Source of the DNA: a bacterium
Lineage (GTDB): Bacteria > UBA10199 > 2-02-FULL-50-16 > JAJFLM01
Direction: 5' to 3'
DNA length: 64,000 bases
Assembly: GCA_965216315.1 (NCBI GenBank)
Contig: CBDCFN010000016.1
Span: 2,112,001-2,176,000 of the forward strand
The stretch's first letter is position 1. Every line of letters begins with the position of its first letter. Positions 9,973 to 49,580 of the stretch are shown piece by piece. The notes beneath the pieces were generated by a model. The model worked only from the letters and a program-made list of their open reading frames with translations, did not search any database and was not told the origin of the DNA. The position numbers and the translations under genes were made by a program.

Positions 9973-10593
9973 ATGATTCAGAGCCTCCAATCGTCCTTAA
10001 TGGCACTCGGGTTTACACAGATGGCACTCATCAGTGGCCCCCAAGTGGACAGCCAGGCCTTCGTTTTAGTTGATGATCCCGGCGACTTAGGGGTCGACAT
10101 CAAGGAGTTGCCCATCGATACCTGGGTCAAACTCAGCGGTTATGAGGAATCCGACTATGATGCCAACCCCGCTATTCTTCGCATGGCTGGCATGCCCAAT
10201 ACTGAGGATACCCAGGCGATGTATCGTCAGGCCCGACGTTCCCTCCACGGCCCCGTGACTTGGGGACGCATCGACCGGCACGACCGCAATCAGCCCCCGA
10301 ATATCTTGAGTGTCCGGGTGAATAGGGATCGTCCGCAGCCCAATCTTACGCAGGGGTTAGCCGCAACCGTAAAAACCAGTGGGATGTATGGCAGTGAGAG
10401 TGTTGCCTGGAGCCTCTATGAGCGTTCCTTGGGCGTCAGCGCCACACGCGCCGCGCAACTCCTGTTGGATGCGGTCCAACGTGGCTGGAACACCAGTCCC
10501 AGTCAAACCTCTAATACACACATTTATCGCGTGTACAACGAACCGACGCTCTTCGCGAGTTTAACTGAGCTGCTCGGCGCTACAAGCATTTAG
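9973..10593 (+). CDS. hypothetical protein
   Basis: 206 aa ORF, no recognisable family. Confidence 0.7.
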   Translation: MIQSLQSSLMALGFTQMALISGPQVDSQAFVLVDDPGDLGVDIKELPIDTWVKLSGYEESDYDANPAILRMAGMPNTEDTQAMYRQARRSLHGPVTWGRIDRHDRNQPPNILSVRVNRDRPQPNLTQGLAATVKTSGMYGSESVAWSLYERSLGVSATRAAQLLLDAVQRGWNTSPSQTSNTHIYRVYNEPTLFASLTELLGATSI

Positions 10594-10606
10594 CTGTTAA
10601 CTCAAC

Positions 10607-11128
10607 CTATTTCTGACGTCTCGCTCGCTGTTCCTTCCGCCACCGACAAGGCATCGTGGAGGAGAGCTTTGACCAAATATAATCACCCGTACCGCGCGCT
10701 TTTCGCTCTGCTCTGACATAGGGCCGCGGATCGTAATTATATTTATCTTTATCCGCCGGCCAGTCGCGACAACGCGGTCGATAATAGTAAGCCAACCCCG
10801 ATTCAATCAGCCGTTCCCCAACATCCTGGCCATTGAGCTTAACGTGACCTAGGACTCGATTATAGCGCTCAAGTCCACGGCCAACCGGATGAATCGTTAT
10901 CTTTTTGGCCCCAATCATATCCTTGAGTCGAAGCCGGGCTAACTTGTAATAGGGTTGGCCGCGTTCCGGCGTATCGATACCGGCAATCCGGACTCGAAAA
11001 CGAATCGTCCCGTCCGTTGCCTCAAAAGTGTCCCCATCGATGACTTTTACAACTTGATAGGAAGTGTGTGCACTGACCGGTGAGGAAATCAGCGATAGTA
11101 ACAAGATGAAAATAAATTTTAAAAACAT
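10607..11128 (-). CDS. thermonuclease (SNase) family protein
   Basis: Signal peptide, VIDGDT, RIAGIDTPE, RYNRVLG. Confidence 0.92.
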   Translation of the reverse strand: MFLKFIFILLLSLISSPVSAHTSYQVVKVIDGDTFEATDGTIRFRVRIAGIDTPERGQPYYKLARLRLKDMIGAKKITIHPVGRGLERYNRVLGHVKLNGQDVGERLIESGLAYYYRPRCRDWPADKDKYNYDPRPYVRAERKARGTGDYIWSKLSSTMPCRWRKEQRARRQK

Positions 11129-28615: not shown

Positions 28616-30550
28616 TTACCAGCCACCCCCTCCTCCGCCACCACCGCCGCCGCCGGAAGACCCTCCACCGGAGAAACCACCACTGCTCCCCGAACGTGAA
28701 CCGGGTGCAACGGACGCCGACGCAATCGCGCTCGTAAACGTACTCGCCATCGACGACGCGAGGGCGCCGTAATTACCGGAGGTAAAACGGCCGTGATACC
28801 AGTGCGGCGCATAGGCCTGCCCGCCCTCCCCGGCCTGCGCGAGCACGTCGGAAAACTGTTCGGCCCACAGTTGTTCGACGTCGAGTGCCAAGGCGTAGGG
28901 CAGATATTTTTCAAACAACTCCGGCGTTTTCTCCGGCGGATGCAAGAGATTCAAGCGTTCCCGTTCCGTCACGCTCAAGAACATCCGAAAGCCCTCGATC
29001 TCATCGAGGAGTTTACGGCCGGCGTGCGTCGGGGCCTTCATCCACCGGTAAAAGAGATAATTCATCAGCGCGAATAAAACGAGGAGCGCCACCATGCCGG
29101 GTGACGTCACCGTCCCGAGCATCACGATACCCGCGATCTCCCCGGCGAGGAATGGGAGAAAAATCACTGTCATGAAAATCGCACTGATCACGCTGACGAG
29201 ACTTTCGGTGCCGCTCAACAACGCTTTCCAATTACGCCAGGCCCCCAGCCCGATGGCAAAGACACCGACGGACCACAGTGACAACCACACGATACCGAAA
29301 AACATCAGGGCCGTCTTTTCGATCGACTCACTAACCGCCATCACGATAATCGCGACGCCGGAAGCGATGACACCGAAGATCATGTACTTCGTATTCTTAA
29401 TGAAATGGATCTTTTCACTCTGCACCGCGAGGGTATTTTTCAACGCCTTCTTCGCCGCGCTGATCTTGCTGTGGTTTTTGTTTTTCAGTTCGAGCGTCTT
29501 CGGTAATTTGTCGTAAATCTTTCTTTCCTCTTTAAACAACAACTGATCCCGCTGCTCTTGTTTATGGAGGACAAACTTGCGCTTCTTTTTTTTGATCTCG
29601 AGCAACCCTTTGACTGCCATGTTGATGATCGCAACGGCATAGGCTTTATTATCAAAGCCCATGCGGCGAATGAAACGCACGGCTGCCGGTGATAATCCCT
29701 GCGGCGGTTCGTAGCGCGGTACAATCGTACCCGCCTCCGGGTCCTTCCCAACAGCCAACCAGACCAGAAAATAATAGAGAAAAACAAGTCCGAGCCCGCC
29801 AACGCCGACGATCAGGCCCCGGTTATCACGAAACAGATAACCGACTTTTTGTTGCGTCGTGGGTTCCGCGACAAAACCCTTGGGCCACCCGACTACAATC
29901 GTCAGTCCCTCCCGCGGCAATAAGGCCCTCATCGTTTCGAATTGTACCGCCGTCCCGTCGTCCCAAGTCCGGTACGCACGCCCCTGGGCCCCTTGATACC
30001 CGGTATAGGCCTCCGCTTTGATTGCGGAACGCGGAATACCGGCAGGCAATACAATGCGTGCCGTCGCCTGTTCGATAGAAAACTCCCAGCCGTTGCCGGT
30101 CACGTTCCAATACAGCTCGTCATGCTCCTCAAAAAAGCCAAGCTGGCGATTGGTCCGGTACTTTAAGGTGTATTTATAAATCCCCGGACTCAGCAAAACA
30201 TCACTCGAACCGATATAAACACGCTCCCCGTTGGATTGCCCTTTGAGATGGAAGGGCTCCGGCTTACCGTTCTTAAGAACTTCTTTGACCTCAAAATCGA
30301 CAACGTAATTATTGCCGAGTCTGTCTTTATAGCGCGTCGGAAAATCCCGGTAGATGCCGCGTTTGATTTGTCGGCGTTCGGCGCGCACTGTAATCGTTTC
30401 GGTGACGTCCATGGCCCCGTCAGGAAAAACCTGCACCTGACTTTCAAAGCTGAGAATTTTTTCTTCCGCCTGCACCGGTTGGACGGTGGCAAAAAGAAAC
30501 AGCGTTGCATGCAACAGAACGATTCCAAAGTGAGCTTGAAATTTCCTCAA
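28616..30550 (-). CDS. DUF2207 membrane protein
   Basis: GIYRDFP, ELYWNVTG, LPYALAL, C-terminal GGGGGGGW. Confidence 0.95.
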   Translation of the reverse strand: MRKFQAHFGIVLLHATLFLFATVQPVQAEEKILSFESQVQVFPDGAMDVTETITVRAERRQIKRGIYRDFPTRYKDRLGNNYVVDFEVKEVLKNGKPEPFHLKGQSNGERVYIGSSDVLLSPGIYKYTLKYRTNRQLGFFEEHDELYWNVTGNGWEFSIEQATARIVLPAGIPRSAIKAEAYTGYQGAQGRAYRTWDDGTAVQFETMRALLPREGLTIVVGWPKGFVAEPTTQQKVGYLFRDNRGLIVGVGGLGLVFLYYFLVWLAVGKDPEAGTIVPRYEPPQGLSPAAVRFIRRMGFDNKAYAVAIINMAVKGLLEIKKKKRKFVLHKQEQRDQLLFKEERKIYDKLPKTLELKNKNHSKISAAKKALKNTLAVQSEKIHFIKNTKYMIFGVIASGVAIIVMAVSESIEKTALMFFGIVWLSLWSVGVFAIGLGAWRNWKALLSGTESLVSVISAIFMTVIFLPFLAGEIAGIVMLGTVTSPGMVALLVLFALMNYLFYRWMKAPTHAGRKLLDEIEGFRMFLSVTERERLNLLHPPEKTPELFEKYLPYALALDVEQLWAEQFSDVLAQAGEGGQAYAPHWYHGRFTSGNYGALASSMASTFTSAIASASVAPGSRSGSSGGFSGGGSSGGGGGGGGGGGW

Positions 30551-31107
30551 GACAACGCCACCTCCGGCACTTTTCTTTCCGTCGCAAACTCAATCTCAAA
30601 ATAGTCAGCAGGTTTAAATTTAAAGAGCCGGGCGATGATCAGACTGGGAAACGAATCGACCCGGATATTATAATTGCGCACGGTTCCATTGTAGTAACGC
30701 CGTGCCAGTTGAATTTGGTCTTCGATTTCGGTGAGACTCGTTTGCAGTTCCAAGAAATTCTGATTGGCCTTGAGGTCCGGATAGGCCTCCGCCAGGGCAA
30801 AAACTCCGCGAAGCGCCTGAGTAAATAGGTTTTCGGCGCTCTCTTGGGCTCGGACCTTCTGGGCATCAATGCACTGATTGCGATACTTGACGACGTCTTC
30901 AAGCAAGTTCTTTTCGTGTCCTGCATAGCCTTTAACTGTCTCAACGAGATTGGGAATCAGGTTGTAACGGCGTCGCAACTGGACATCAATACCGCTCCAC
31001 GCCTCTCTTTTGAGATTACTCAACCTGACAAAGCCGTTATAGAACAGTATAACGACGGTCAGCAGCAACAGCACCGGAATGACGAGGTAGATCCACTCCA
31101 TCCACAA
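30547..31107 (-). CDS. lemA: LemA family protein
   Basis: WSGIDVQLRRRYNLIPNLVETVKGY and EAYPDLKAN. Start is 31107 or 31101. Confidence 0.95.
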   Translation of the reverse strand: MWMEWIYLVIPVLLLLTVVILFYNGFVRLSNLKREAWSGIDVQLRRRYNLIPNLVETVKGYAGHEKNLLEDVVKYRNQCIDAQKVRAQESAENLFTQALRGVFALAEAYPDLKANQNFLELQTSLTEIEDQIQLARRYYNGTVRNYNIRVDSFPSLIIARLFKFKPADYFEIEFATERKVPEVALS

Positions 31108-31151: not shown

Positions 31152-31613
31152 TTAGCCCAAGTCGAGTTGATCCGGATCGATCATCCCGTCATCAACGAGT
31201 TCTTCGATGTGCGTGTTAAGCAAAGAGAGCAGCTTTTCATCGTGCCGGTATTGGGCCTCTTGCATGTCGGCTTCTTGCTTCATCCCGGCAATTTCCAATT
31301 TGGTATCGAGCTTGCCCTGCTCCATCATCTGCATCCGCTGACCCATCAGGTTCATCATGTTGGTCTGCATCTGCGTCTGCTGGACCTGGCCGCCGACAAA
31401 CATCGCCATGTTCGCCTTGCTGGCCTCGGCCATCGCGATCATCCCGGGATTGTAATCGACGGGCGCCGGGGCGCCGGGAACGGATTGATTGCTACCGCCA
31501 CCTCCGAAGAGCATATTGCCCGCGCCGCCGATTAAATTACCCGCGCCACCGACCAAGCTACCGACTCCGCTCACCAATCCCCCAACAAGACCACCACCTC
31601 CAAATAAGCCCAT
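31152..31613 (-). CDS. Gly-rich / Met-Gln coiled-coil protein, paralog 1
   Basis: SD AGGAGG, MGLFGGGG N-terminus, conserved C-domain shared with the next two genes. Confidence 0.85.
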   Translation of the reverse strand: MGLFGGGGLVGGLVSGVGSLVGGAGNLIGGAGNMLFGGGGSNQSVPGAPAPVDYNPGMIAMAEASKANMAMFVGGQVQQTQMQTNMMNLMGQRMQMMEQGKLDTKLEIAGMKQEADMQEAQYRHDEKLLSLLNTHIEELVDDGMIDPDQLDLG

Positions 31614-31660
31614 AACACGTCCTCCTTTCAATCGTTGCAAATCTTACGATTCACAATAAT

Positions 31661-31676
31661 TGCAAGGGCTGTGCCA
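31661..31676 (-). promoter_or_regulatory. sigma54 promoter
   Basis: TGGCAC-AGCCC-TTGCA. Confidence 0.85.
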
Positions 31677-31780
31677 AAGAATATCTTATTGTTATCATTG
31701 AATTTTTATGAATTAACGGAGGTTAAATAGCACACATTGCGCCGTCCAGCTTGTGCTAGCAGCGCACAAAGTGTGCGTCA

Positions 31781-32203
31781 TTAGGCCAATTGATCGGGGT
31801 CAATCATCCCATCGTCGACGAGCTCTTCGATATGGTTATTGAGCAGCTCCAGGAGCTTCTCGTCATGCCGATACTGGGCCTCTTGCATCTTGACGTTGGT
31901 ATTCATCGAAGCAATCTCAAGCTTGGTGTCCAGCTTGCCCTGCTCCATCTGCTGCATCCGCATCCCCATCAGGTTCATCATGTTGGTCTGCATCTGGGTC
32001 TGTTGGACCTGGCCGCCGACAAACATCGCCATATTCGCCATACTGGCCTCGGCCATCGGGCCCATGTCCATACCGGGATTCGTCGGGGCCCCACCCCCCG
32101 TAATCGTCCCGGTGCCGCCACCGAACAGGATGTCTCCCGCGCCGCCGAGTATGCCACCCGCTACGCCATCAATAAAACCGCCAATACCACCAAAAAGTCC
32201 CAT
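31781..32203 (-). CDS. Gly-rich / Met-Gln coiled-coil protein, paralog 2
   Basis: SD AAGGAG, MGLFGGIGG N-terminus. Confidence 0.85.
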   Translation of the reverse strand: MGLFGGIGGFIDGVAGGILGGAGDILFGGGTGTITGGGAPTNPGMDMGPMAEASMANMAMFVGGQVQQTQMQTNMMNLMGMRMQQMEQGKLDTKLEIASMNTNVKMQEAQYRHDEKLLELLNNHIEELVDDGMIDPDQLA

Positions 32204-32248
32204 GCTGATCACTCCTTCTGTTTTGTTCAAGACTATGGCTTAGATAGG

Positions 32249-32282
32249 AGCAAAGAGTGTGCCACATAGCAACTTATTGATT
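32249..32282 (-). promoter_or_regulatory. sigma54 promoter plus IHF site
   Basis: TGGCAC-ACTCT-TTGCT and AATCAATAAGTTG (WATCAANNNNTTR). Confidence 0.85.
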
Positions 32283-32365
32283 TTTAAAGATAAATTTTGA
32301 ATGAGCTCCCTCGAAAAGGGGCTCAATGAGCACCACTTTGTGCAAGATCGATACAAAACGGCCGC

Positions 32366-32902
32366 TTAAGCCAAGGAATCCGGATCGATCATCCCATCGT
32401 CGACTAGTTCTTCGATGTGATGATTGAGCTGTTCCAGCAATTTCTCGTCGTGGCGGTATTGTTCTTCCTGCATCCGCGCCGTGACGTTCATTTTGGCGAT
32501 CTCCAATTTAGTGTCGAGCTTGCCCTGCTCCATCTGCTGCATGCGCTGGCCCATCAGGTTCATCATATTCGCCTGCATCCGGGTCTGTTGGAGTTGACCC
32601 GCCGTAAAGAGCGCCATATTCGCCATACTGGCCTCCGCCATGTCACTGTAAATGGATTCCTTGGGATCACCAACGGAGGCGTTGCCACCGCTGATGACAC
32701 CGGTTGCACTCCCGATCACGCCGCTGACACCATCGTAGACTCCCCCGGCCACCCCACCGACGACACCCCCGACCACATCGCCGACAAAGCCGCCGACACC
32801 ACCGGCCACATCACTAACCACTCCCGCCGCACCGCCGAGAATATCGCCACCCGCATCGACTACACTCGAAGCCCCCCGTTTTAGTGAAGTCCACCATCCC
32901 AT
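32366..32902 (-). CDS. Gly-rich / Met-Gln coiled-coil protein, paralog 3
   Basis: SD AAGGAG, MGWWTSLKRG then GGVVGGVAGG repeats, same C-domain. Confidence 0.85.
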   Translation of the reverse strand: MGWWTSLKRGASSVVDAGGDILGGAAGVVSDVAGGVGGFVGDVVGGVVGGVAGGVYDGVSGVIGSATGVISGGNASVGDPKESIYSDMAEASMANMALFTAGQLQQTRMQANMMNLMGQRMQQMEQGKLDTKLEIAKMNVTARMQEEQYRHDEKLLEQLNHHIEELVDDGMIDPDSLA

Positions 32903-32948
32903 AACACACGCTCCTTTCCAGTAACTTGATAACTCAAGCCCTAGTAAT

Positions 32949-32964
32949 AGCAAGACACGTGCCA
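32949..32964 (-). promoter_or_regulatory. sigma54 promoter
   Basis: TGGCAC-GTGTC-TTGCT. Confidence 0.85.
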
Positions 32965-33101
32965 ACAGGTAATTGTATGAATTTATTGAATGTTTATCTT
33001 TTCGTGTATAAAAAAATGCACTCGTCCCTGCCACAGAACGCATAAATTTTATACACTGTGGAGGGACAACACTACGTGAGCGCGGGGATATTCAGGATTT
33101 C

Positions 33102-33383: not shown

Positions 33384-33585
33384 GGGTATTTCCTCCAAAA
33401 TTAGCGTTTGATGCCATTCAAGAGGGTGGAAGCACAAGGCTTGATACTCTCTGAGGCAGCGAAAAACAGCCTTTCGCATAGCCTTGGTTAATAGTCAATG
33501 CTCAAATGTGAGGGCGAGACCTTCCAAGAATTCTTGCGTCCAATGCCCCAAAGAGTTACTTAAACACCCTCGGGAGGAGAAAACC

Positions 33586-33876
33586 ATGAAACAAAAAAAA
33601 GTTATGTCGTATGCCGCCTTTGCAGGAGCCGTCACCCTAGGCGTCGGCCTGGCCTCGACGGCCATCGCCGCCCCTAAGTGGGCTAAAACCGGAGATACGG
33701 TTGAAAAGTGCCTCGGCGTTGCCGCCAAGGGTCAGAATGACTGTGGTTCCAAAGATGGGGCTCACGGTTGCGGCGGCAAGGCAAAGACCGATCGGGATCC
33801 AAACGAATGGGTCTACACGCCGGAAGGTCTCTGCGCGAAACTGGGCGGCACGGTCTGGAAAACCAAAAAGATTTAA
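33586..33876 (+). CDS. DUF2282 bufferin-type precursor (BufA1-like)
   Basis: Signal peptide, EKCLG..KGQNDC...HGCGG...W..PEGLCAKLGG (4 Cys). Confidence 0.85.
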   Translation: MKQKKVMSYAAFAGAVTLGVGLASTAIAAPKWAKTGDTVEKCLGVAAKGQNDCGSKDGAHGCGGKAKTDRDPNEWVYTPEGLCAKLGGTVWKTKKI

Positions 33877-34712
33877 AGATTTTTCGCGGCTCGTTAGCGG
33901 GGGCCGGCATCGGCCTCCGCTTTCCGCACTTCGATCAAATCCTCTCGGAACGACCAGCGATTCCCTGGTTTGAAATTCTCGTCGATAACATCATGGGCGA
34001 TGCGCGGGAATTTTACGCCAAACTCGATCGCCTCCGCCAGGACTACCCTTTCGTCTTTCACGGCGTCAGCATGAATCTTGGCTCCGTCGATCCCCTCAAC
34101 CAGGTTTATTTCGCAGAGCTCAGAGAGCTGATTACTCGTTATCAACCACTTCACGTCTCCGAACATCTCGCCTGGACGGGAGTCAACGCCCGCTTTCATC
34201 ACGACTTGTTACCGCTCCCGTACACGGAAGAATCGCTCGCCCACATGAAATCCCGCGTCGCCCAAGCCCAGGACTTGCTTGGCCAACGCATCGTCATCGA
34301 AAACCCCTCTTCCTATTTTGCCTTTAAAGAGAGTTCTATCGCTGAATGGGATTTTCTCAGTGAAGTCGTCACTGCCGCAGATACCGGCATCCTCCTCGAC
34401 GTCAATAATATTTACGTCAGCGCGTCCAATCACGGCTATCAACCCACACGCTATCTTGAAGCGCTGCCACTGGACCGCATCACGTACATCCATCTCGCCG
34501 GTTACCAGGATTGCAAAACCTACCTCTTTGACAGTCACGGTCAAAAGGTCTGGCCTCAAGTCTGGGAACTCTACCAACAAACGATTGAGCAAGCGGGACC
34601 GCTGCCGACCCTCATCGAATGGGACAGCGATATTCCGACGCTCGAAGAACTGATGGCGGAAGCGGCTCAGGCCCAACGCATCTTATCCGGAGAACGCTAT
34701 GAAGCTGGCTGA
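33807..34712 (+). CDS. DUF692 multinuclear iron enzyme (MNIO, BufB-like), start uncertain
   Basis: GIGLRFPH, HGVSMNLG, SEHLAW, DLLPLP, ENPS, LLDVNNIY, HLAG, IEWD. Confidence 0.92.
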   Translation: MGLHAGRSLRETGRHGLENQKDLKIFRGSLAGAGIGLRFPHFDQILSERPAIPWFEILVDNIMGDAREFYAKLDRLRQDYPFVFHGVSMNLGSVDPLNQVYFAELRELITRYQPLHVSEHLAWTGVNARFHHDLLPLPYTEESLAHMKSRVAQAQDLLGQRIVIENPSSYFAFKESSIAEWDFLSEVVTAADTGILLDVNNIYVSASNHGYQPTRYLEALPLDRITYIHLAGYQDCKTYLFDSHGQKVWPQVWELYQQTIEQAGPLPTLIEWDSDIPTLEELMAEAAQAQRILSGERYEAG

Positions 34713-35469
34713 GCTCCAGAAAAAATTGGCGGACTATATTTACAGCGCGCGCCCCAGCGATGCGGCCCGCAATGAAATGAAGCAGCTTCTTTCCACTGAA
34801 ACGGCCATTGATCCGGACACGGGTCTCGAACTTTACCGCAAGAATCTCGTCTTTGGCATCATTGATTGCCTCCAAGGCGTTTTTGCGCAAACGCGACGCG
34901 TTCTTGGGGACGATAATTTTGCCTTCTTCGTTCGCGAACTGATCTATCAGGCCCCCTCAACCCATGAAGATGTTCGTCAGTATGGAGCGCATCTCCCGGC
35001 TTTTCTCGCCGAGCGCGCGGAACTCGCCGACAGCCGTTGGATCGGTGATATGGCCGCCATCGAATGGGCCTGGCATGACTTGGCCTTCATCTCGCTGGAT
35101 ACTCCGGCCCGCGTGGAGGACATCCTCGGCCGTCCCGCTTCCGTCCACATGATTCACGCCTTGCATACACTCAAGAGTTCGTGGCCTCTCCTCAAAATTT
35201 GGAAGTCCCTACAAGACGAGTCGGAGCACCAACTCAAAGAGCTGATTGTGCTCGAACCCGAGGACAGCTATTACTGTCTCTGGCGCACAGCAGCCGGACT
35301 GAAAGCCACAGAAATCTCACCCGAGATCTGGCAACTCTTGCATGATCTCAAAGCCGGGATGAATCCCCAAGAACTCGCCCGACAAAACTATACGGACCAT
35401 TCCCTCGCAACCACCTGGGAGATGCTCGCTTACGCCGCCGAACAGGGCTGGCTGAAGAAATCTAATTAG
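34699..35469 (+). CDS. DUF2063 (BufC/HvfC-like) partner protein
   Basis: LAELQ, LELYRKN, YGAHLPAFL, DMAAIEWA. Confidence 0.85.
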   Translation: MKLAELQKKLADYIYSARPSDAARNEMKQLLSTETAIDPDTGLELYRKNLVFGIIDCLQGVFAQTRRVLGDDNFAFFVRELIYQAPSTHEDVRQYGAHLPAFLAERAELADSRWIGDMAAIEWAWHDLAFISLDTPARVEDILGRPASVHMIHALHTLKSSWPLLKIWKSLQDESEHQLKELIVLEPEDSYYCLWRTAAGLKATEISPEIWQLLHDLKAGMNPQELARQNYTDHSLATTWEMLAYAAEQGWLKKSN

Positions 35470-35587: not shown

Positions 35588-37303
35588 ATGTCTGGATATC
35601 AAAAACTGAAACCATTTATTTGGCTGACGCTCATTGCACTCGGCGGTGCCGCTTGTTCACCGGCCGCTCACCACACCGGATCGCAGCACCGCGACATCGA
35701 CATCGTCGCGGCCCCTGAAGATTCCGACCTCGATCCCGATGTGAATGTTTTTATCGACCCGACCTTAGCTCCGCCGGACCGAGTCAAGATCGGCGACGAG
35801 TGGATTGACATAATGGACGCCGAAGGACGTGCCGCGGCGGAGCTGGAACAGTCACTGGACGAGAACCGTGGGATATTCGGTTCATTCGGCAATAATAACG
35901 ACGACCCTGTCTTCGATGGGGGTCTCATTGCGACAATTGCCCAGCCGACGATCATTGCAGACGTTTACTTCGAAGCAGAGGAATCAAACGTCGATGTCGA
36001 CGGCACGATGGGGGGCGAGGACTTTGTCCGCGGCGAACCGGAAGCCGAGCCCGAGATCCCCGCAGGTACGCACATCGATGCGATCAAGATTTGCTTCCGC
36101 ACCCACGGCGCCGGTCAAATGTTCAATCCCATCCAAACACCGGTCACGATGACTTTTTGCCCGAGCGCGGATGGAGCCTTTAAAACAGGGAACGAAAGAG
36201 ATCACTGTTATGACTACAGTGCGATCAATACCGACCGAATCGATGATGGCTACTTTTGTACCTGGAAGCACGTCCCGCAACGCGATCAACCCGTCGTCTA
36301 TCCGCATCACTTCAAATACTTTGCGATTGAAAATGACGTTGAGGCTCCCGCTCCCAGCTATACGAATAGCTGGCTGATCTCGGGGATTGACATCCAAGTC
36401 AGCCGCTTCGGCGAAGAAGGCTTCACCTCCATCTACACGGCACCGGCGTTCAACAAGCTATTAGATGCGAACACGCCGGTCGCCTATGGCAGCTTTCGGG
36501 ATACCGGGATCATTGCGAATGTCGGTGTCGGCTATCAACGCGGCGCCGGCACGAACGACCGCCTGGAACTCGCATGCGCCGCGGGCCCGGAGCAAGCCGG
36601 CCTGGCGCATGGATCTATCAATGCCATTCGCAACCATCAAGTCCCGCACTTGCGCCGTGAACATAACGAGATCATCATGAACCTGAACTACCTCAACGAC
36701 CGCAGCGGCCGCGAAGGACGCTTTGATGATCTTGAAAGCGGGCACCTGACGACCTACGGCGCGATGTGGTTCGACGGGGATCCCCTCCAGAATCTCGTCG
36801 TCAGTGAGCGGCGGCCCAATGACCCCTATGGCAACCCGATTGAGCTCGAGCGAGCGCGCGACGTGCAATACAAGCGCTGCCGTTTCAAGCTGAACGGCGG
36901 CAACGATACGCTCGCCTTACGAGATGCCGGCTTGATCATCTACCGGCCTTGGCGTCCCCTCGGCGAGCGCCATCGCAGCTGTTATCTTCGCAGTGACTCC
37001 CTCGAATGGCTGACTCCGGAACCGACGAGTCGTGACTGTCGCCAGCGCGGCCGCGCGGGCTGCATGAGTTACCCGCCTTACGTCCACCGGCCTCATTATT
37101 TCGACATCGTCGGCTGGAACGCCGGCCACTGCAGCGCGCTCAAGCACATCCATCCGGAACGTGCGGCCGCGCCGATCAATATGTTGAACTACTTTGAGTT
37201 TGCGGAGAATCCCACCATGTGTGTCATTCGCCATCCAAATGCACACAGCGATGGTTTTTGGGCCGGCGGAGAACCAAATCGAGATGATTGTACGCGCTTT
37301 TAA
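35588..37303 (+). CDS. Cys-rich lipoprotein with a PLAT/LH2-like region
   Basis: Lipobox GAAC, GAGTNDRL...LNYLND...FDDLESG. Confidence 0.7.
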   Translation: MSGYQKLKPFIWLTLIALGGAACSPAAHHTGSQHRDIDIVAAPEDSDLDPDVNVFIDPTLAPPDRVKIGDEWIDIMDAEGRAAAELEQSLDENRGIFGSFGNNNDDPVFDGGLIATIAQPTIIADVYFEAEESNVDVDGTMGGEDFVRGEPEAEPEIPAGTHIDAIKICFRTHGAGQMFNPIQTPVTMTFCPSADGAFKTGNERDHCYDYSAINTDRIDDGYFCTWKHVPQRDQPVVYPHHFKYFAIENDVEAPAPSYTNSWLISGIDIQVSRFGEEGFTSIYTAPAFNKLLDANTPVAYGSFRDTGIIANVGVGYQRGAGTNDRLELACAAGPEQAGLAHGSINAIRNHQVPHLRREHNEIIMNLNYLNDRSGREGRFDDLESGHLTTYGAMWFDGDPLQNLVVSERRPNDPYGNPIELERARDVQYKRCRFKLNGGNDTLALRDAGLIIYRPWRPLGERHRSCYLRSDSLEWLTPEPTSRDCRQRGRAGCMSYPPYVHRPHYFDIVGWNAGHCSALKHIHPERAAAPINMLNYFEFAENPTMCVIRHPNAHSDGFWAGGEPNRDDCTRF

Positions 37304-44228: not shown

Positions 44229-45530
44229 ATGAAACGCATTTTATTCTTACTTCCCATCCTGTTGGCCTACTCTGTCACGGCACATGCCCGCATCTACATC
44301 CGCATTGATGAAGTCGCCGAAAAGAAATTTCCGATCGCGATCACCAACCTCATCAACGACGGCGGCAAACGCGACAACAAAAACTGGTCACGCGAAATCC
44401 CCAAGATCCTGCAAAACGATCTGCGCATCTCGGGTCTCTTTGAATTTGTCGACCCGGAGATTTTTCCCGGCGAGGATTCAAACACATACAAGCCCGGTGA
44501 CGTGAAATTCCCGGCGTGGAACCTGCTTGGGATTCAGGGCCTCGTCAAAGGCGGTTTCACCTACGGAAGCGACGGCAAGGTCACGGCGTCGATCTATCTC
44601 TACGATCCTTCGCTGGGCCAAAAAATCGTCGCCCATGAGTACCGGGCCAACGCCGGTGAGTTCCGCAAGGTCGCGCACCATTTTGCCGACATGGTCATGG
44701 AAGCCCTCACCGGTTATCCCGGCATCTTTCGGACCCGCATTGCCTTTGTCTGCGGCAGCAAGAAGTCCGGTAAGGAAATCTGCAGCATGGGGGTCGACGG
44801 TAAAGAAGTCGCCAAGCACACCTCGGATCGCAACATCAATATCAGTCCCGAATTTTCCCCGGGCGGGGGCAAGATCGCTTACACCTCATTCACCGAGGAA
44901 GGGGATGCGGAAATCAAGGTGGTCAATGTCGGCTCGAAGTCGGTCCGGCAGATCACTAAAAAAGGCGGCATCAACCTCTCCCCAACCTGGACCCCGGGTG
45001 GCGGTCTTATCACCGCACTCGTCGGCGATAACGGCGACAACATCTACAACATCAGCATGAGCGGACGGCTCGTCAAGCGGCTAACCAATCATTGGAGTAT
45101 CGACATCGCCCCGTCATGGAGCCCGGGCGGCGACGCCTTTACCTTTTCTTCGGAACGGGCCGGCGGCCTGCACGTCTTCCGTGCCAATGCCGGCGGCGGC
45201 GGCGTGCAACGTTTGACCTTTGTCGGCTACCAGAATGATAACCCCGCCTGGTCGCCGGACGGTCAACGCATCATGTTTCAGGGACGTGACCAGGGAACCT
45301 GGGATCTCTTCATCATGAACCCGGACGGTTCGATGTTGCAGCGGCTCACCGCCGGCGCCGGCACCAATCAAGAACCGACCTGGGCCCCGAACAGCCAATA
45401 CATTGGTTTTGCCTCGAGCCGCGGCGGCGGCATGAGCATCTACATCATGAATGCGATGGGTGAGAACGTCACCAAGGTCGGCGGCGGAGTCATGCCGTCA
45501 TGGGGTCCGTTACCGAAGAAATCCCTATAA
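44229..45530 (+). CDS. tolB: TolB beta-propeller protein
   Basis: TolB N-domain, TRIAF, PD40 repeats (PSWSP, PAWSPDG). Confidence 0.93.
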   Translation: MKRILFLLPILLAYSVTAHARIYIRIDEVAEKKFPIAITNLINDGGKRDNKNWSREIPKILQNDLRISGLFEFVDPEIFPGEDSNTYKPGDVKFPAWNLLGIQGLVKGGFTYGSDGKVTASIYLYDPSLGQKIVAHEYRANAGEFRKVAHHFADMVMEALTGYPGIFRTRIAFVCGSKKSGKEICSMGVDGKEVAKHTSDRNINISPEFSPGGGKIAYTSFTEEGDAEIKVVNVGSKSVRQITKKGGINLSPTWTPGGGLITALVGDNGDNIYNISMSGRLVKRLTNHWSIDIAPSWSPGGDAFTFSSERAGGLHVFRANAGGGGVQRLTFVGYQNDNPAWSPDGQRIMFQGRDQGTWDLFIMNPDGSMLQRLTAGAGTNQEPTWAPNSQYIGFASSRGGGMSIYIMNAMGENVTKVGGGVMPSWGPLPKKSL

Positions 45531-47171
45531 CGCTAAGGCCTGCTCTAGATACTGCAAATTAATGCGCTCCGTCACGAGGCGCCTACGCTCCTGCTCCTGT
45601 TGACCTGTGAGTGTCTTGTCGACGAACACGAAATGATCCGGCCTGGTCTCGACCAACAATCCGTTATCACGCGCCCACTGCTCCATTTCCTGGTCCTTCT
45701 CAACAGCGAGGTAGAACAGGCGCATCCGCAAGTGATCACGCAGCTTCGTTTGGTCCTGGATTAACCCATCGACGTCAATCAAGGCGCTCAGACGATCCGC
45801 ATCAGACACGAACGGACCGGTATAGTTGCGCACCAAATCATACCCGGCTTCAATTCCCTTCCGGGCCCCGTCATTATGGTAGATCTCCGTAAGCTCTCTT
45901 TGCACTCCCGTCCAATCGATTCGCCATTTTTTATTCGCCAAATGGGTATGCCGGAGGAGAACGCTGAACACGGAGGCTTCGAGGCTCTCGCCAAACGTCT
46001 CGGAGTCCCCGATCAATTTATGAAGTATCTTAAAGATCTCTGCCTTGTAGGCTTGTTTGAAATCGCTATCGAACCAACCGGCGACCGTGTCTCCGAAGGT
46101 CGCGAACGTACCGAAGGCGCCGGCAATGAAGTCACCCCGTTCCTGGACGTTATAAATATCCTGACAGAGACGGATCACGTCAAAAAAGCGTTCGTCACTG
46201 TCACCCGTGAGCGCGTGACCAATCAGATCGGCCACCCCGCGGGCCCCCAGGTCAACGATACCGGCCCAGCCGACCAAGCGGGCCGTCCCGACAGCCAGTC
46301 GGGCGACGGCGGCCTTGGGACCCAAACCGCCGAGTTGGAACCCTTTGATGACGGACGTGGTTTCGAGAGCCTCGGCCAGGACCGGAACCTGAGTCGCCAA
46401 GGCGTAGGGAATCCCGGCCAACACGAGTCCTCCGAACATCGTCGCAGTTTCATCCGCCTCGACGCCGAGAAAATCGAGCAGGCCGTGCGCCAAATATTGG
46501 AAACCCATAAAGGTGGGAACCTGCCCGAGCGCTTGCAACGGGCTCTTCTGCACCAGTCCCGCCTTATACAGCCCCTGGTGAATCAACATAACGCTCGTAA
46601 ACAGGACCGGACTGCGGGCCTCTTCGGGCAAGACTCCCGCCTCAATCAGGCTTCCTATCAACCCTTGATCGAGGGCGACGACCACTGCGGCTCCCCCGAA
46701 AAGCGAGACGGTCAGCCCGAAGGTACCCGGCGTATTGGGTCCGTTCGGGCCACCCGTCGCGGCGCGCAGCGCGGAGGGAGCCGAACCGGCGCGCGACAGA
46801 GTCAATTGCATCGTCAGCTCGCCGTTGCTCATCACCATCTGACTCAGCCGGAACGAAATCGGCAAACGCCCTTCAACCGCCACCGCATAAAAGGGCTGTA
46901 AATAAGACTGCAGCGCCGGAGACAACTGTTTAAAGTGCCGTGTCAGCTCAAGATCTTGCTCAAAAGGCAAATCAAGCGAAAGCGGTTGTGGTGCGAGTAG
47001 CTTGGTCACGCCATTTTGAATGGGCACAGGTGACGCGATGGCTGTAGCGCCCGGCTCCGGTGCCAGCGCATCGACGACACACTGTAAAACATTGGCTTGC
47101 TCCTGACAAAGTGTCAGCGCTTGGCCGACGCGCGCCAAGCCGGTACTCGTCATTACCGTAACGAAACTCAT
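45525..47171 (-). CDS. array protein A (subfamily alpha), hydrophobic helical core
   Basis: 548 aa, SD AAGGAGG at the upstream stop, paralogous to array proteins C and I. Confidence 0.85.
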   Translation of the reverse strand: MSFVTVMTSTGLARVGQALTLCQEQANVLQCVVDALAPEPGATAIASPVPIQNGVTKLLAPQPLSLDLPFEQDLELTRHFKQLSPALQSYLQPFYAVAVEGRLPISFRLSQMVMSNGELTMQLTLSRAGSAPSALRAATGGPNGPNTPGTFGLTVSLFGGAAVVVALDQGLIGSLIEAGVLPEEARSPVLFTSVMLIHQGLYKAGLVQKSPLQALGQVPTFMGFQYLAHGLLDFLGVEADETATMFGGLVLAGIPYALATQVPVLAEALETTSVIKGFQLGGLGPKAAVARLAVGTARLVGWAGIVDLGARGVADLIGHALTGDSDERFFDVIRLCQDIYNVQERGDFIAGAFGTFATFGDTVAGWFDSDFKQAYKAEIFKILHKLIGDSETFGESLEASVFSVLLRHTHLANKKWRIDWTGVQRELTEIYHNDGARKGIEAGYDLVRNYTGPFVSDADRLSALIDVDGLIQDQTKLRDHLRMRLFYLAVEKDQEMEQWARDNGLLVETRPDHFVFVDKTLTGQQEQERRRLVTERINLQYLEQALAL

Positions 47172-47180
47172 GCTACCTCC

Positions 47181-49580
47181 TTAAATCATGAGCGAACGAT
47201 AGAAAGATTTCCGCTCCGGGTTCTCCGGATCAAGACTCTGCTCGAGCTGATGCCAGGATTCGATTTCCTGCTTGAGCTGAATCAGCTCTGATTTTGTCCC
47301 GTCACCAAAGACAAATTTACGCTGCTCTGTACTCAATTGATGATCCGGAATTTGCTTGGAGTAGTATTGCCCATTCGAAATATACCCCAATCCGACATCA
47401 TGGGCACGCTGTGCGACCTGCCGCTGCAGGCCTTGACGGATTCGTCCGACCAACTGCTGCAAGCGACCTGATTTCTCGGCACGCTGAATCAGGTCATGCA
47501 AGTAAGACTGCATTTCCCCGGGCATCCAGTCTCCACGCACTGGTTGCCCCGTGCGGAAGTCATAGGCCTGGCGATAACGACCAAAAGATCCGTCGGAATT
47601 TATCGTTTTGAGTAAACGAATCGCGCCGCGCACCGCGCGCTCGCGCGTCGTCCCGGTAAAAAGTTCGGCCAATTGCGGCAGTGAATGTTTAAGTGCCTTT
47701 CGGTATTCTTTTCGTTTGCTCTCGGTAAGCTCGGGATAGGCCTCACCACTATAGACGTCTTTGAGGCGCGCTTTGAGTGCCGTCCAGTTCACCTCCGCCG
47801 TCCATTTCCCGTAAAACGGATCTTTCGGCAACGACCGGCGCGTCTTGATCACGGTGATCAAGATTTCATCCTCGACGTTTTTCGCAAAGCGCTCGAGATT
47901 GGTCTGCCAATCGATCATCCGGGTCTTGATACCGCGCCAGATTTCTCGGTCGACGTCATCATCGACTGCCGAGCTCAGCGATTGCATGCCTCGCGCGATC
48001 GCCCCACCGAAGAAGTAGCCGACACTCCCCATATGTTCACGGAGTATCGTATCGTAGGCCGAGCGCATCAGTTTATAATCGGGATCGTCATCATAACCGG
48101 TCGCCGCCATGACACCGCTGACCGCCAACTCTCCGGCCCAGTTGCCGAGGCCGATGACGTTGACGGCATTGAAGGCCTGCACGCCGAGTGCGAGTCCCTT
48201 GGTCGCCGCCGAGGCCCCGGCCGGGATCCCGCTGGAGAGAAAAATGCGTCCCCCCCAAATACTGAAGAGAGGTCGTCCGCCGACCATGATCGGCCGCAGG
48301 GCCGCCAGGCCCGCGCCGGGCAAGCCTTGCGGCTGGACATAACGGGGAACAAGCGGGCTACGCCAAAGTTTGGCACCTGCACCCAGTTTTTGACTAAAGG
48401 CCGCCGTCTCATAAGCCAAGCGCAAGGGAGCGAGTTGCGAGGCGTAATGCGCCACGGCCATATAACCGCCCATCGTAATCCCGACACTCCCGATACTATT
48501 TTCAGGGCTCCCAAATTCCCAACCAAGACCATCCAAAAGAAAACCGGTGCCGACACTCGCGCCGAACATCATCGGCATACTGAGCCCGAGTGGATTCCAC
48601 TGGGGCCGGCCCATAAAACCGCGGCTCAGCAGACCATCGGCGACCAAGGACTCGCTGATCTGCCCCATCATTTCGTAGCTGGCGAGCATACCGCCCATCA
48701 CAAAGACCGGACGGATAGCGGGATCGAGATCCTGAAAGACCCCGAACTCAAAGGCAACGTAAATTCCGGTCGCCATCCCGACATGAAAACCGAGCCGTGC
48801 GACCGGACGAATCACGCGTTGTACCAGCGGATTTTTCAGGAAGCGTGATGCCGTAAAGAGCCCACCCAACAAAGGCGCCCCGGCTGTCAGCAGATCCTGA
48901 TCATCACCACCACGATTTGACTCCTGAGCCAACAGCAAACCTTCCTCAATGAGGATACCGGTCCGCACAATGCCCCGACTAAAAGGCTGTTCTGCAAGTT
49001 GAAAATCCGGCGCATAATTCGGTTGGTGTCCGGGCACATGCAAAATGACTTCATGACCATCGAGCCGGCGCTGCAACTGCCCTGCAATACGCGCGATGTC
49101 CTGGTCTGCATCGATCGGTACAAAACGGATCTGCGGCTTAAAAACGACCTCACGCCCTTCGAGCTCGGAGACCCATTCGACATAAAAGGCGGCTTGATCG
49201 GGACGGCGTGACTCCGTCTTCAAGACTTCATGGGCCATCGCGCGAAACAGCCTGGGCAGCTGATCTCGTTGTTCGGACAAGAGGTAGACGCGACCCGGCT
49301 CAATGCCCTCGAGAAAATACTCGATCTCCCCCTCGATCGCTTGCCGCTGCTGAAACCGCGCCTGCTCCTTTAAAGCCGAAACATCGCGTTCCAACCAGGG
49401 CTGTCGGGGGTCGGGTGTACTGACATAGCTATCCGAATAAAGAAGACCCTGGCTTTCGGCCATGGCCTGAGAAAAACCCGCCGCTTCATAACAGTGTCCG
49501 GCTACGGCGGTCGGTGCCGCCAGGGGGGTCACCCCGACGACGGCACAGTGCTGACTCACAAGGTTCGCAACGCAATTCAT
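47181..49580 (-). CDS. array protein B (divergent gamma)
   Basis: 799 aa, DPDYKLMRSAYD motif matches proteins F and H. Confidence 0.85.
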   Translation of the reverse strand: MNCVANLVSQHCAVVGVTPLAAPTAVAGHCYEAAGFSQAMAESQGLLYSDSYVSTPDPRQPWLERDVSALKEQARFQQRQAIEGEIEYFLEGIEPGRVYLLSEQRDQLPRLFRAMAHEVLKTESRRPDQAAFYVEWVSELEGREVVFKPQIRFVPIDADQDIARIAGQLQRRLDGHEVILHVPGHQPNYAPDFQLAEQPFSRGIVRTGILIEEGLLLAQESNRGGDDQDLLTAGAPLLGGLFTASRFLKNPLVQRVIRPVARLGFHVGMATGIYVAFEFGVFQDLDPAIRPVFVMGGMLASYEMMGQISESLVADGLLSRGFMGRPQWNPLGLSMPMMFGASVGTGFLLDGLGWEFGSPENSIGSVGITMGGYMAVAHYASQLAPLRLAYETAAFSQKLGAGAKLWRSPLVPRYVQPQGLPGAGLAALRPIMVGGRPLFSIWGGRIFLSSGIPAGASAATKGLALGVQAFNAVNVIGLGNWAGELAVSGVMAATGYDDDPDYKLMRSAYDTILREHMGSVGYFFGGAIARGMQSLSSAVDDDVDREIWRGIKTRMIDWQTNLERFAKNVEDEILITVIKTRRSLPKDPFYGKWTAEVNWTALKARLKDVYSGEAYPELTESKRKEYRKALKHSLPQLAELFTGTTRERAVRGAIRLLKTINSDGSFGRYRQAYDFRTGQPVRGDWMPGEMQSYLHDLIQRAEKSGRLQQLVGRIRQGLQRQVAQRAHDVGLGYISNGQYYSKQIPDHQLSTEQRKFVFGDGTKSELIQLKQEIESWHQLEQSLDPENPERKSFYRSLMI

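Follow-up and report, generated by a model that had tools for sequence, protein, structure and literature searches.

Three tandem genes for glycine-rich, putatively coiled-coil proteins, each with its own sigma-54 promoter, in an uncultured bacterial phylum

A 64,000-nucleotide (nt) stretch of chromosomal DNA from an uncultured bacterium (lineage UBA10199; assembly GCA_965216315.1, contig CBDCFN010000016.1, positions 2,112,001 to 2,176,000; here called the window) contained three tandem paralogous genes, A, B, and C, each preceded by its own perfect sigma-54 promoter and each encoding a small protein with a glycine-rich N terminus and a shared helical C-terminal domain. The interpretation that we favor, tentatively and at somewhat less than an even chance, is that the triplet specifies a signal-induced, membrane-associated coiled-coil assembly. 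An earlier reading made from the DNA letters and their translations (the sequence-only reading) had likened the products to the DNA pilot protein H of bacteriophage phiX174; no homology to that protein was detected. The three genes were as follows.

31152-31613, minus strand: paralog A, 153 amino acids (aa); E of 8.8e-53 to B
31781-32203, minus strand: paralog B, 140 aa
32366-32902, minus strand: paralog C, 178 aa; 75-residue Gly/Val/Asp-rich N terminus, then the shared helical domain; E of 1.3e-51 to B

The genes were arranged head to tail, all on the minus strand, with the sizes and order that had been given in the sequence-only reading, and a GGAG motif was found 8 nt before the ATG of each. 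Variable Gly-rich N termini and a common helical C-terminal domain were likewise present in all three, as described earlier. The common domain formed a gap-free block of 88 residues, for which the earlier description as near-identical was overstated: amino acid identities to B were 85% and 79% for the other two paralogs (domain alignment), and DNA identities among the paralogs were 75 to 81% (88 codons, 264 nt). Over these 264 nt, the proportion of nonsynonymous differences (pN) was 0.10 to 0.13, compared to a proportion of synonymous differences (pS) of 0.63 to 0.78, which corresponded to omega values of 0.04 to 0.07. Because synonymous sites were near saturation and pN was low, A, B, and C are old tandem duplicates, each retained under strong purifying selection; recent copying or gene conversion is ruled out by the same values. 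The genome (2.96 Mb in 16 contigs; designated G000) carried two further paralogs, P0004, with a short Gly-rich head, and P0009, which was headless and had a YPYQWG tail.

Each of the three genes was preceded by a sigma-54 promoter.

31662-31676, minus strand: sigma-54 promoter of A, TGGCACAGCCCTTGC, then A
32250-32264, minus strand: sigma-54 promoter of B, TGGCACACTCTTTGC, then T
32950-32964, minus strand: sigma-54 promoter of C, TGGCACGTGTCTTGC, then T

The motif TGGCAC-N5-TTGC occurred exactly three times in the window, always on the minus strand and once per paralog, in agreement with the individual perfect promoters proposed in the sequence-only reading. Shuffled versions of the window contained a mean of 0.15 such sites, and at least three sites were found in 1 of 100 shuffles. 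The distance from promoter to ATG was 46 to 48 nt in all three paralogs, and the -12 elements (TTGCT at B and C and TTGCA at A) fit the extended consensus TGGCAC-N5-TTGCW. Across the whole genome, 61 perfect TGGCAC-N5-TTGC sites were found, compared to approximately 6 expected in random sequence (by arithmetic), together with one copy of rpoN and 17 strong matches to Sigma54_activat, many of which lay inside open reading frames (ORFs) of 1,300 to 1,700 aa. About 9 of the 17 strong activators were in frames of this size that fuse kinase and STAND-like sensor parts. Many of the 61 perfect promoters preceded giant (800 to 2,245 aa) or lineage-specific ORFs.

The arrangement resembles NtrC/PspF-class sigma-54 regulons in its TGGCAC-N5-TTGCW promoters, in a candidate upstream site about 90 nt away, and in the presence of rpoN together with many AAA+ activators in the genome. 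In the case of pspA, one sigma-54 promoter serves one small effector gene, and the triplet genes are arranged alike. The difference lies in the candidate activator, here a 1,578-aa protein in which Ser/Thr kinase, STAND NTPase, TPR, GAF, and AAA+ parts are fused. The triplet proteins had no match to PspA/IM30 (PF04012) at E ≤ 10 in Pfam, and the one weak PspA-like ORF of the genome was located away from the triplet.

Candidate activator sites were found upstream of all three promoters.

31752-31768, minus strand: candidate activator site of promoter A, TGT-N11-ACA (TGTGCGCTGCTAGCACA), 92 nt upstream of the -24 element and inside a strong hairpin after gene B
32339-32355, minus strand: candidate activator site of promoter B, TGT-N11-ACA (TGTATCGATCTTGCACA), 91 nt upstream of the -24 element
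33031-33061, no strand: candidate activator site of promoter C, palindrome CCACAG-N19-CTGTGG, 72 to 96 nt upstream (half-sites at -96 and -72), a variant of the A/B site

TGT-N11-ACA was present upstream of 11 of 60 perfect promoters, compared to 2.7% of random 220-nt stretches, with preferred offsets of -79 and -92. TGT-N8-WGCACAA was found at -91/-92 in 3 of the 60 (background, 0.1%), namely, at A, at B, and at a promoter on another contig (C15:300434). The last of these is divergent to the gene for the 1,578-aa protein (G000:C15:295635-300371), which contains Pkinase, STAND/AAA_16, TPR, GAF, Sigma54_activat, and HTH_8 domains. A family member from a sister genus (P0016, genome G003) combined a perfect sigma-54 site with the upstream site seen at A and B and was likewise divergent from a kinase gene; the best match of that kinase in the present genome was the 1,578-aa activator (48% identity over 398 aa, E of 4e-118; next-best match, 38.5% identity). 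An AT-rich box immediately 5' of the -24 element was common to A, B, C, and P0016. Because the upstream site is shared and the G003 ortholog adjoins a family member, the 1,578-aa kinase-activator most likely drives A and B, and probably C too, putatively by binding at these sites.

Two further observations concern these promoters. TGT-N11-ACA at -78/-79 marked four promoters (e.g., C16:1295027, 1297766, 1303768, and 1978171), two of which precede a 1,400-aa ORF region at C16:1.30 Mb; this class of sites suggests the regulon of another activator. The promoter at C15:300434 (L030, 4935-5150; G000:C15:300434 onward) was followed by approximately 200 nt with no convincing ORF and then by a helix-turn-helix (HTH) gene, and the intervening stretch may correspond to a leader or encode a small RNA.

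A model of B (AlphaFold2, 9-row alignment) left residues 1 to 49 unstructured (predicted local distance difference test [pLDDT] score of <50) and placed residues 50 to 130 in a single unbroken helix of 81 residues (pLDDT of 64 to 77 in the helix blocks). The predicted layout is a disordered Gly-rich N terminus that is joined through a Pro-rich hinge to a single helix of about 80 residues. The Gly-rich heads of the triplet were 37, 44, and 75 residues long with 32 to 46% Gly, and the helix had a Met/Gln-rich first half and a charged second half. The best 19-residue Kyte-Doolittle windows of the N termini scored 1.08 to 1.58, with those of the Gly-rich heads at 1.42 to 1.58, compared to 1.40 for the N terminus of phiX174 H. 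GxxxG motifs exceeded composition in C (12, versus a shuffle mean of 7.0; P of approximately 0.01) and in P0004 (5 versus 2.2). No member of the family contained Cys. Scans against Pfam and NCBIfam gave chance-level rows only, and the ESM Atlas returned nothing usable for P0009 (best score, 0.77).

The apparent 11-residue periodicity noted in the sequence-only reading received modest support in the triplet and clearer support across the family. BLOSUM self-similarity at lag 11, compared to 500 shuffles, gave z of 2.2 for B, 1.6 for C, and 1.1 for A; z was at least 2.0 in 10 and above 1.0 in 13 of 15 family members, which are homologous and hence not independent. Lag 11 was the best or near-best lag tested, with lag 7 mostly at 0 to 1.6, and the phiX174 H control gave z of 3.0 at lag 11 and 2.9 at lag 22. 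An 11-residue periodicity in the family is plausible but is drawn from related sequences. A hydrophobic-moment Fourier test showed no signal at 3.5 to 3.7 in the family and none in the H control either, so this test had no power.

The family was rare. A word-indexed search of 5.8 billion proteins found 8 family members, of which this genome supplied 4, and an exhaustive profile search produced 13 matches among 1.84 billion representatives, none with a name or a Pfam family. Three of the 13 were set aside as long repeat proteins (two inspected; P0021 uninspected), and about 10 family clusters remained. By these searches, the family is a lineage-restricted orphan. Within the phylum, it was present in 10 of 93 genomes, comprising 4/4 of the same order, 5/6 of family f14, 1/4 of family f16, and none in other families. 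A synteny check in relatives, as suggested in the sequence-only reading, revealed that the headless form occurs in a conserved order, X-CC-Y (where CC is the coiled-coil protein), in seven genomes (G000, G003, G001, G053, G054, G055, and G056). The sigma-54 site upstream of X was perfect in G056, G054, and G001 and had one mismatch in G055; no such site was found before X in G053, G000, or G003. The X-CC-Y operon appears to be the older setting of the family and to be often sigma-54 driven. Tandem arrays recurred, with four copies in G001 and three in both G053 and G054, and formed lineage-specific clades in the tree. The window triplet grouped with P0004 in one clade (support, 100/99), sister to the headless P0009 of the same genome (81/98). 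Gly-rich heads with sigma-54 sites were also found in G003 and in G057, the latter a solo Gly-headed member with a one-mismatch site.

In the reading that we favor, each gene would be silent until a sigma-54 activator fires its own -24/-12 promoter, with the 1,578-aa kinase-activator binding TGT-N8-WGCACAA about 92 nt upstream of A and B and probably acting on C. The variable-length, Gly-rich hydrophobic head would lie on or dip into the cytoplasmic membrane, the Pro-rich hinge would join the head to the helix, and the helix of about 80 residues would self-associate into a coiled-coil bundle. The three products may co-assemble, given that they share a conserved stalk and vary in their heads; different heads would then be carried on the same type of stalk.

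Several observations weigh against this scheme. The model of B was of low confidence (mean pLDDT of 59). The usual Kyte-Doolittle threshold for a transmembrane segment is about 1.6; the N-terminal windows fell below it and contained Asp. GxxxG motifs were not above composition in A or B (shuffle test), and lag-11 z was only 1.1 to 2.2 in the three window proteins. Promoter C had the related palindrome and no exact TGT-N8-WGCACAA. In the tree, the Gly-headed P0016 grouped with the headless copy of its own genome (87/89, long branch), which may reflect either two origins of the heads or a misplaced branch. The probable cotranscription of LemA and DUF2207 genes downstream of A (see below) is specific to this genome, so that it says little on function.

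Among known architectures, glycine-zipper membrane peptides and phage inner-membrane spanins are similar in having about 150 aa with a small hydrophobic N terminus followed by a coiled coil. The triplet differs from them in having no match to a Pfam glycine-zipper or spanin family at E ≤ 10, no partner lipoprotein gene, and no lysis cassette. A literature search on glycine-zipper, sigma-54, and coiled-coil membrane proteins found no relevant paper.

The earlier description of H as a protein with a Gly-rich N terminus and hendecads was borne out by the H sequence and by Table 1 of PMC7354561, which lists three hendecads at residues 151 to 183, followed by 11 heptads. According to that paper, residues 151 to 271 (121 residues) form a decameric tube 170 Å long that is lined with amide and guanidinium groups. 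The triplet proteins share with H a Gly-rich hydrophobic N terminus, a long Gln-rich helix with a putative 11-residue periodicity, and a short LDxxxEIAxM-like stretch that in H lies inside the hendecad part; Cys is absent from the family. They differ in length (140 to 178 aa versus 328 aa), in a helix of about 80 residues versus a 121-residue tube segment that also holds the 11 heptads (PMC7354561), in being encoded by chromosomal, sigma-54-controlled, multicopy genes, and in that the ancestral form of the family has no Gly-rich head.

The resemblance to H noted in the sequence-only reading found no support as kinship in the comparisons made. The triplet proteins had no match to PF04687 (Microvir_H) at E ≤ 10 in Pfam, a family that H relatives do carry, and hhalign of the family against H gave a probability of 9.1% over 13 columns, which covered the LDxxxEIAxM stretch. 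Real H received -3.5 and -1.4 bits from two hidden Markov models of the family, scores that were equaled or exceeded by 262 and 96, respectively, of 1,000 region-wise, composition-preserving shuffles of H (10 to 26%). BLASTP against H aligned only the Gly-rich N termini with 16/35 identities (pairwise E of 3e-5) and a second stretch with 10/32 (E of 0.24). A sequence search of the PDB with the family profile gave two chance hits only (E of 0.95 and 1.8). The alignment of H relatives, 89 to 99% identical to phiX174, was left out of the profile comparison. By these comparisons, the likeness to H does not exceed composition and is one of architecture only, as the caveat attached to the original suggestion had anticipated. 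A profile scan of the window neighbors of the triplet identified LemA, DUF2207, RRM, MbnB-like, protease, and Tol-Pal genes and no microvirus genes, in keeping with the chromosomal, phage-free setting described earlier. Descent of the triplet from a domesticated microvirus pilot-protein gene, with its products as true homologs of H, is consequently close to refuted: the shared architecture and the 13-column match are all that speak for it, and the headless form of the oldest members also argues against it.

By analogy with H, the proteins might form a multihelix tube or pore that breaches a membrane, perhaps after export by the nonflagellar type III system of the phylum and insertion into the membrane of a target cell. 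The H-like architecture, including the alignment of the N termini, and the lack of Cys are consistent with this idea, as are a type III export cluster in a genome with no flagellin match (98% complete) and the many sigma-54 promoters that precede giant ORFs with no obvious signal peptide by eye. C also had weak PHROG matches to phage tail-associated lysin and tape-measure families (best E of 1.5e-6); these matches were strongest for C, weak for A, and absent for B, and they are read as compositional because their strength tracks the length of the Gly-rich region. The helix would extend about 120 Å (by arithmetic, at 1.5 Å per residue), versus the 170-Å tube of H (PMC7354561), and a tube spanning the envelope is less likely because a helix of about 80 residues compares with the 121-residue stretch of that tube. 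There was also no phyletic link to type III export, with FHIPEP in 91 of 93 genomes of the phylum versus 10 of 93 for the family, and none of the 61 perfect sigma-54 sites lay in the type III cluster. On balance, a tube or pore of this kind seems unlikely. The cluster itself (G000:C16:339170-361000; L028 and L029) encoded FlhA/SctV, two FHA/YscD-like proteins, a 335-aa YscJ/FliF-family protein, FliH/SctL, an ATPase, and YscO-like, FliK-, FliM/N-, and FliOPQR-like proteins.

The X-CC-Y operon points to another possibility, in which the family is the substrate of X. RTX toxins provide a precedent, being activated by the acyltransferase of a neighboring gene; by analogy, acylation or acetylation of the N-terminal Gly/Ser or of an invariant Lys could switch on membrane binding. 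X (G000:C16:1469818-1470474 in the present genome) is an orphan too (three proteins found in the search); its model, from a shallow alignment, had a pLDDT of 82 and a predicted template modeling (pTM) score of 0.79. Foldseek against the PDB listed acetyltransferases as all of its chains (best E of 2.9e-4), and a VIA-align wide search, in which GNATs dominated the list, gave Z of 8.9 for 1y9w_B (root mean square deviation of 3.4 over 105 aligned residues) and 8.4 for a second GNAT. X thus resembles GNAT acyltransferases in predicted fold only. The conserved X-CC-Y order fits a substrate relationship, as do the Met-Gly start of 14 of 23 family ORFs (starts chosen by the analyst) and the Lys of the LDxKLEIA motif (K94), which was invariant in the 9-row alignment. 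X had no Pfam match at E ≤ 0.01 and none in PHROG, however, Z values of 7 to 9 are common for unrelated models on the tool's own scale, and the loop expected to bind coenzyme A lacked the usual Gly motif of GNATs (judged by eye). Several family members start with MK, MH, or MD, and the window triplet is 673 kb away from X. Modification by X is accordingly regarded as improbable. Y had no match in Pfam, PHROG, or the ESM Atlas, and its alignment was shallow.

The preceding elements could also be combined into a chromosomal counterpart of viral ejection tubes, in which kinase-coupled sigma-54 induction, perhaps with priming by the GNAT-fold protein, yields a polar-lined helical pore or conduit in the cell's own membrane or, via type III export, in that of a target, convergent with H. 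This broader construction is quite improbable in our estimation.

The neighborhood of the headless paralog, with X, was a conserved orphan region (L019, 5731-14489; G000:C16:1463730-1472488). A perfect sigma-54 site in this region precedes the gene for an acidic 344-aa protein, and protein Y is present in three copies. The region also encodes a B12-radical SAM enzyme, which adjoins the module in G053 as well, and two small Ala/Gly-rich proteins (L019:10134-10526 and 10547-10975), each with a Gly/Ala head and a Gln/Met-rich helix. Pfam and PHROG scans of the acidic protein and of the Ala/Gly-rich proteins returned nothing. In G063 (contig C22; L026, 40-783), a 247-aa protein starting MGFGDFLSGAGDVF and continuing into an Ala/Gln-rich helix took the place of X before two divergent members and Y; it is another Gly-headed relative of the theme.

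The composition of the proteins and the genes upstream of the triplet bear on a further alternative, in which the proteins are Met/Gln-rich buffers, with Met residues serving as sacrificial oxidant sinks or as Cu(I)-binding clusters, tied to a neighboring operon.

33484-35469, plus strand: operon of a DUF2282 Cys-rich precursor-like protein, an MbnB/TglH/ChrH-type enzyme (E of 2.5e-101), and DUF2063, just upstream of the triplet, past an RRM gene

Operons of the MbnB/TglH/ChrH type respond to copper, and the present one resembles a metal-stress operon of the ribosomally synthesized and posttranslationally modified peptide (RiPP) type. Met made up 7 to 12% of A, B, and C and 10 to 13% of the close family members, compared to 2.18% in the 1,521 long ORFs of the genome (maximum, 7.0%), and H113 and H124 were invariant in the 9-row alignment. 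Met fell to 5 to 8% in distant members, however, in which the LDxKLEIA..H.E core was kept; the proteins lack both a signal peptide and Cys, and the operon is on the other strand, beyond the RRM gene. A buffering role is considered very unlikely.

The locus provides a clean and testable unit in an uncultured phylum: the promoter class is defined, a giant kinase-activator and a DNA site for it can be proposed, and the small effectors form a family of unusual architecture. If the membrane assembly that we favor is real, it would represent a new bacterial class of assemblies that combine a glycine zipper with an 11-residue coiled coil, and it would be convergent with a viral DNA-delivery protein. 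If it is not, a tempting but unsupported phage annotation has been removed all the same. In addition, an orphan operon (GNAT-fold X, coiled-coil protein, and Y) has been documented, with conservation in three families of the phylum.

The remaining features lie between and around the three genes.

32265-32370, minus strand: C-B intergenic stretch; hairpin GAGCCCC..GGGAGCUC, then a U-rich stretch; whole stretch, -24.5 kcal/mol, z of -1.7
32373-32359: second short terminator-like hairpin in the C-B intergenic region
30547-31107, minus strand: LemA-family gene (PF04011, E of 5.9e-58), 44 nt downstream of A
28616-30550, minus strand: DUF2207 membrane protein, whose start overlaps the LemA stop by 4 nt

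The hairpin between C and B is probably the terminator of C. The hairpin after gene B (-31.6 kcal/mol, z of -4.5) contained the candidate activator site of A, and its bases may serve as the terminator of B, as the activator site of A, or as both. Because neither a hairpin nor a sigma-70-like promoter was found in the 44 nt between A and LemA, LemA is probably cotranscribed with A. In four relatives, none of five LemA loci had a family gene upstream, and the linkage of A to LemA therefore appears local to this genome, which weakens a functional link. A literature search on LemA together with DUF2207 found no relevant paper. Elsewhere in the window, three large ORFs of 571, 548, and 799 aa (35588-37303, plus strand; 45525-47171, minus strand; and 47181-49580, minus strand, respectively) had no Pfam match at E ≤ 0.001.

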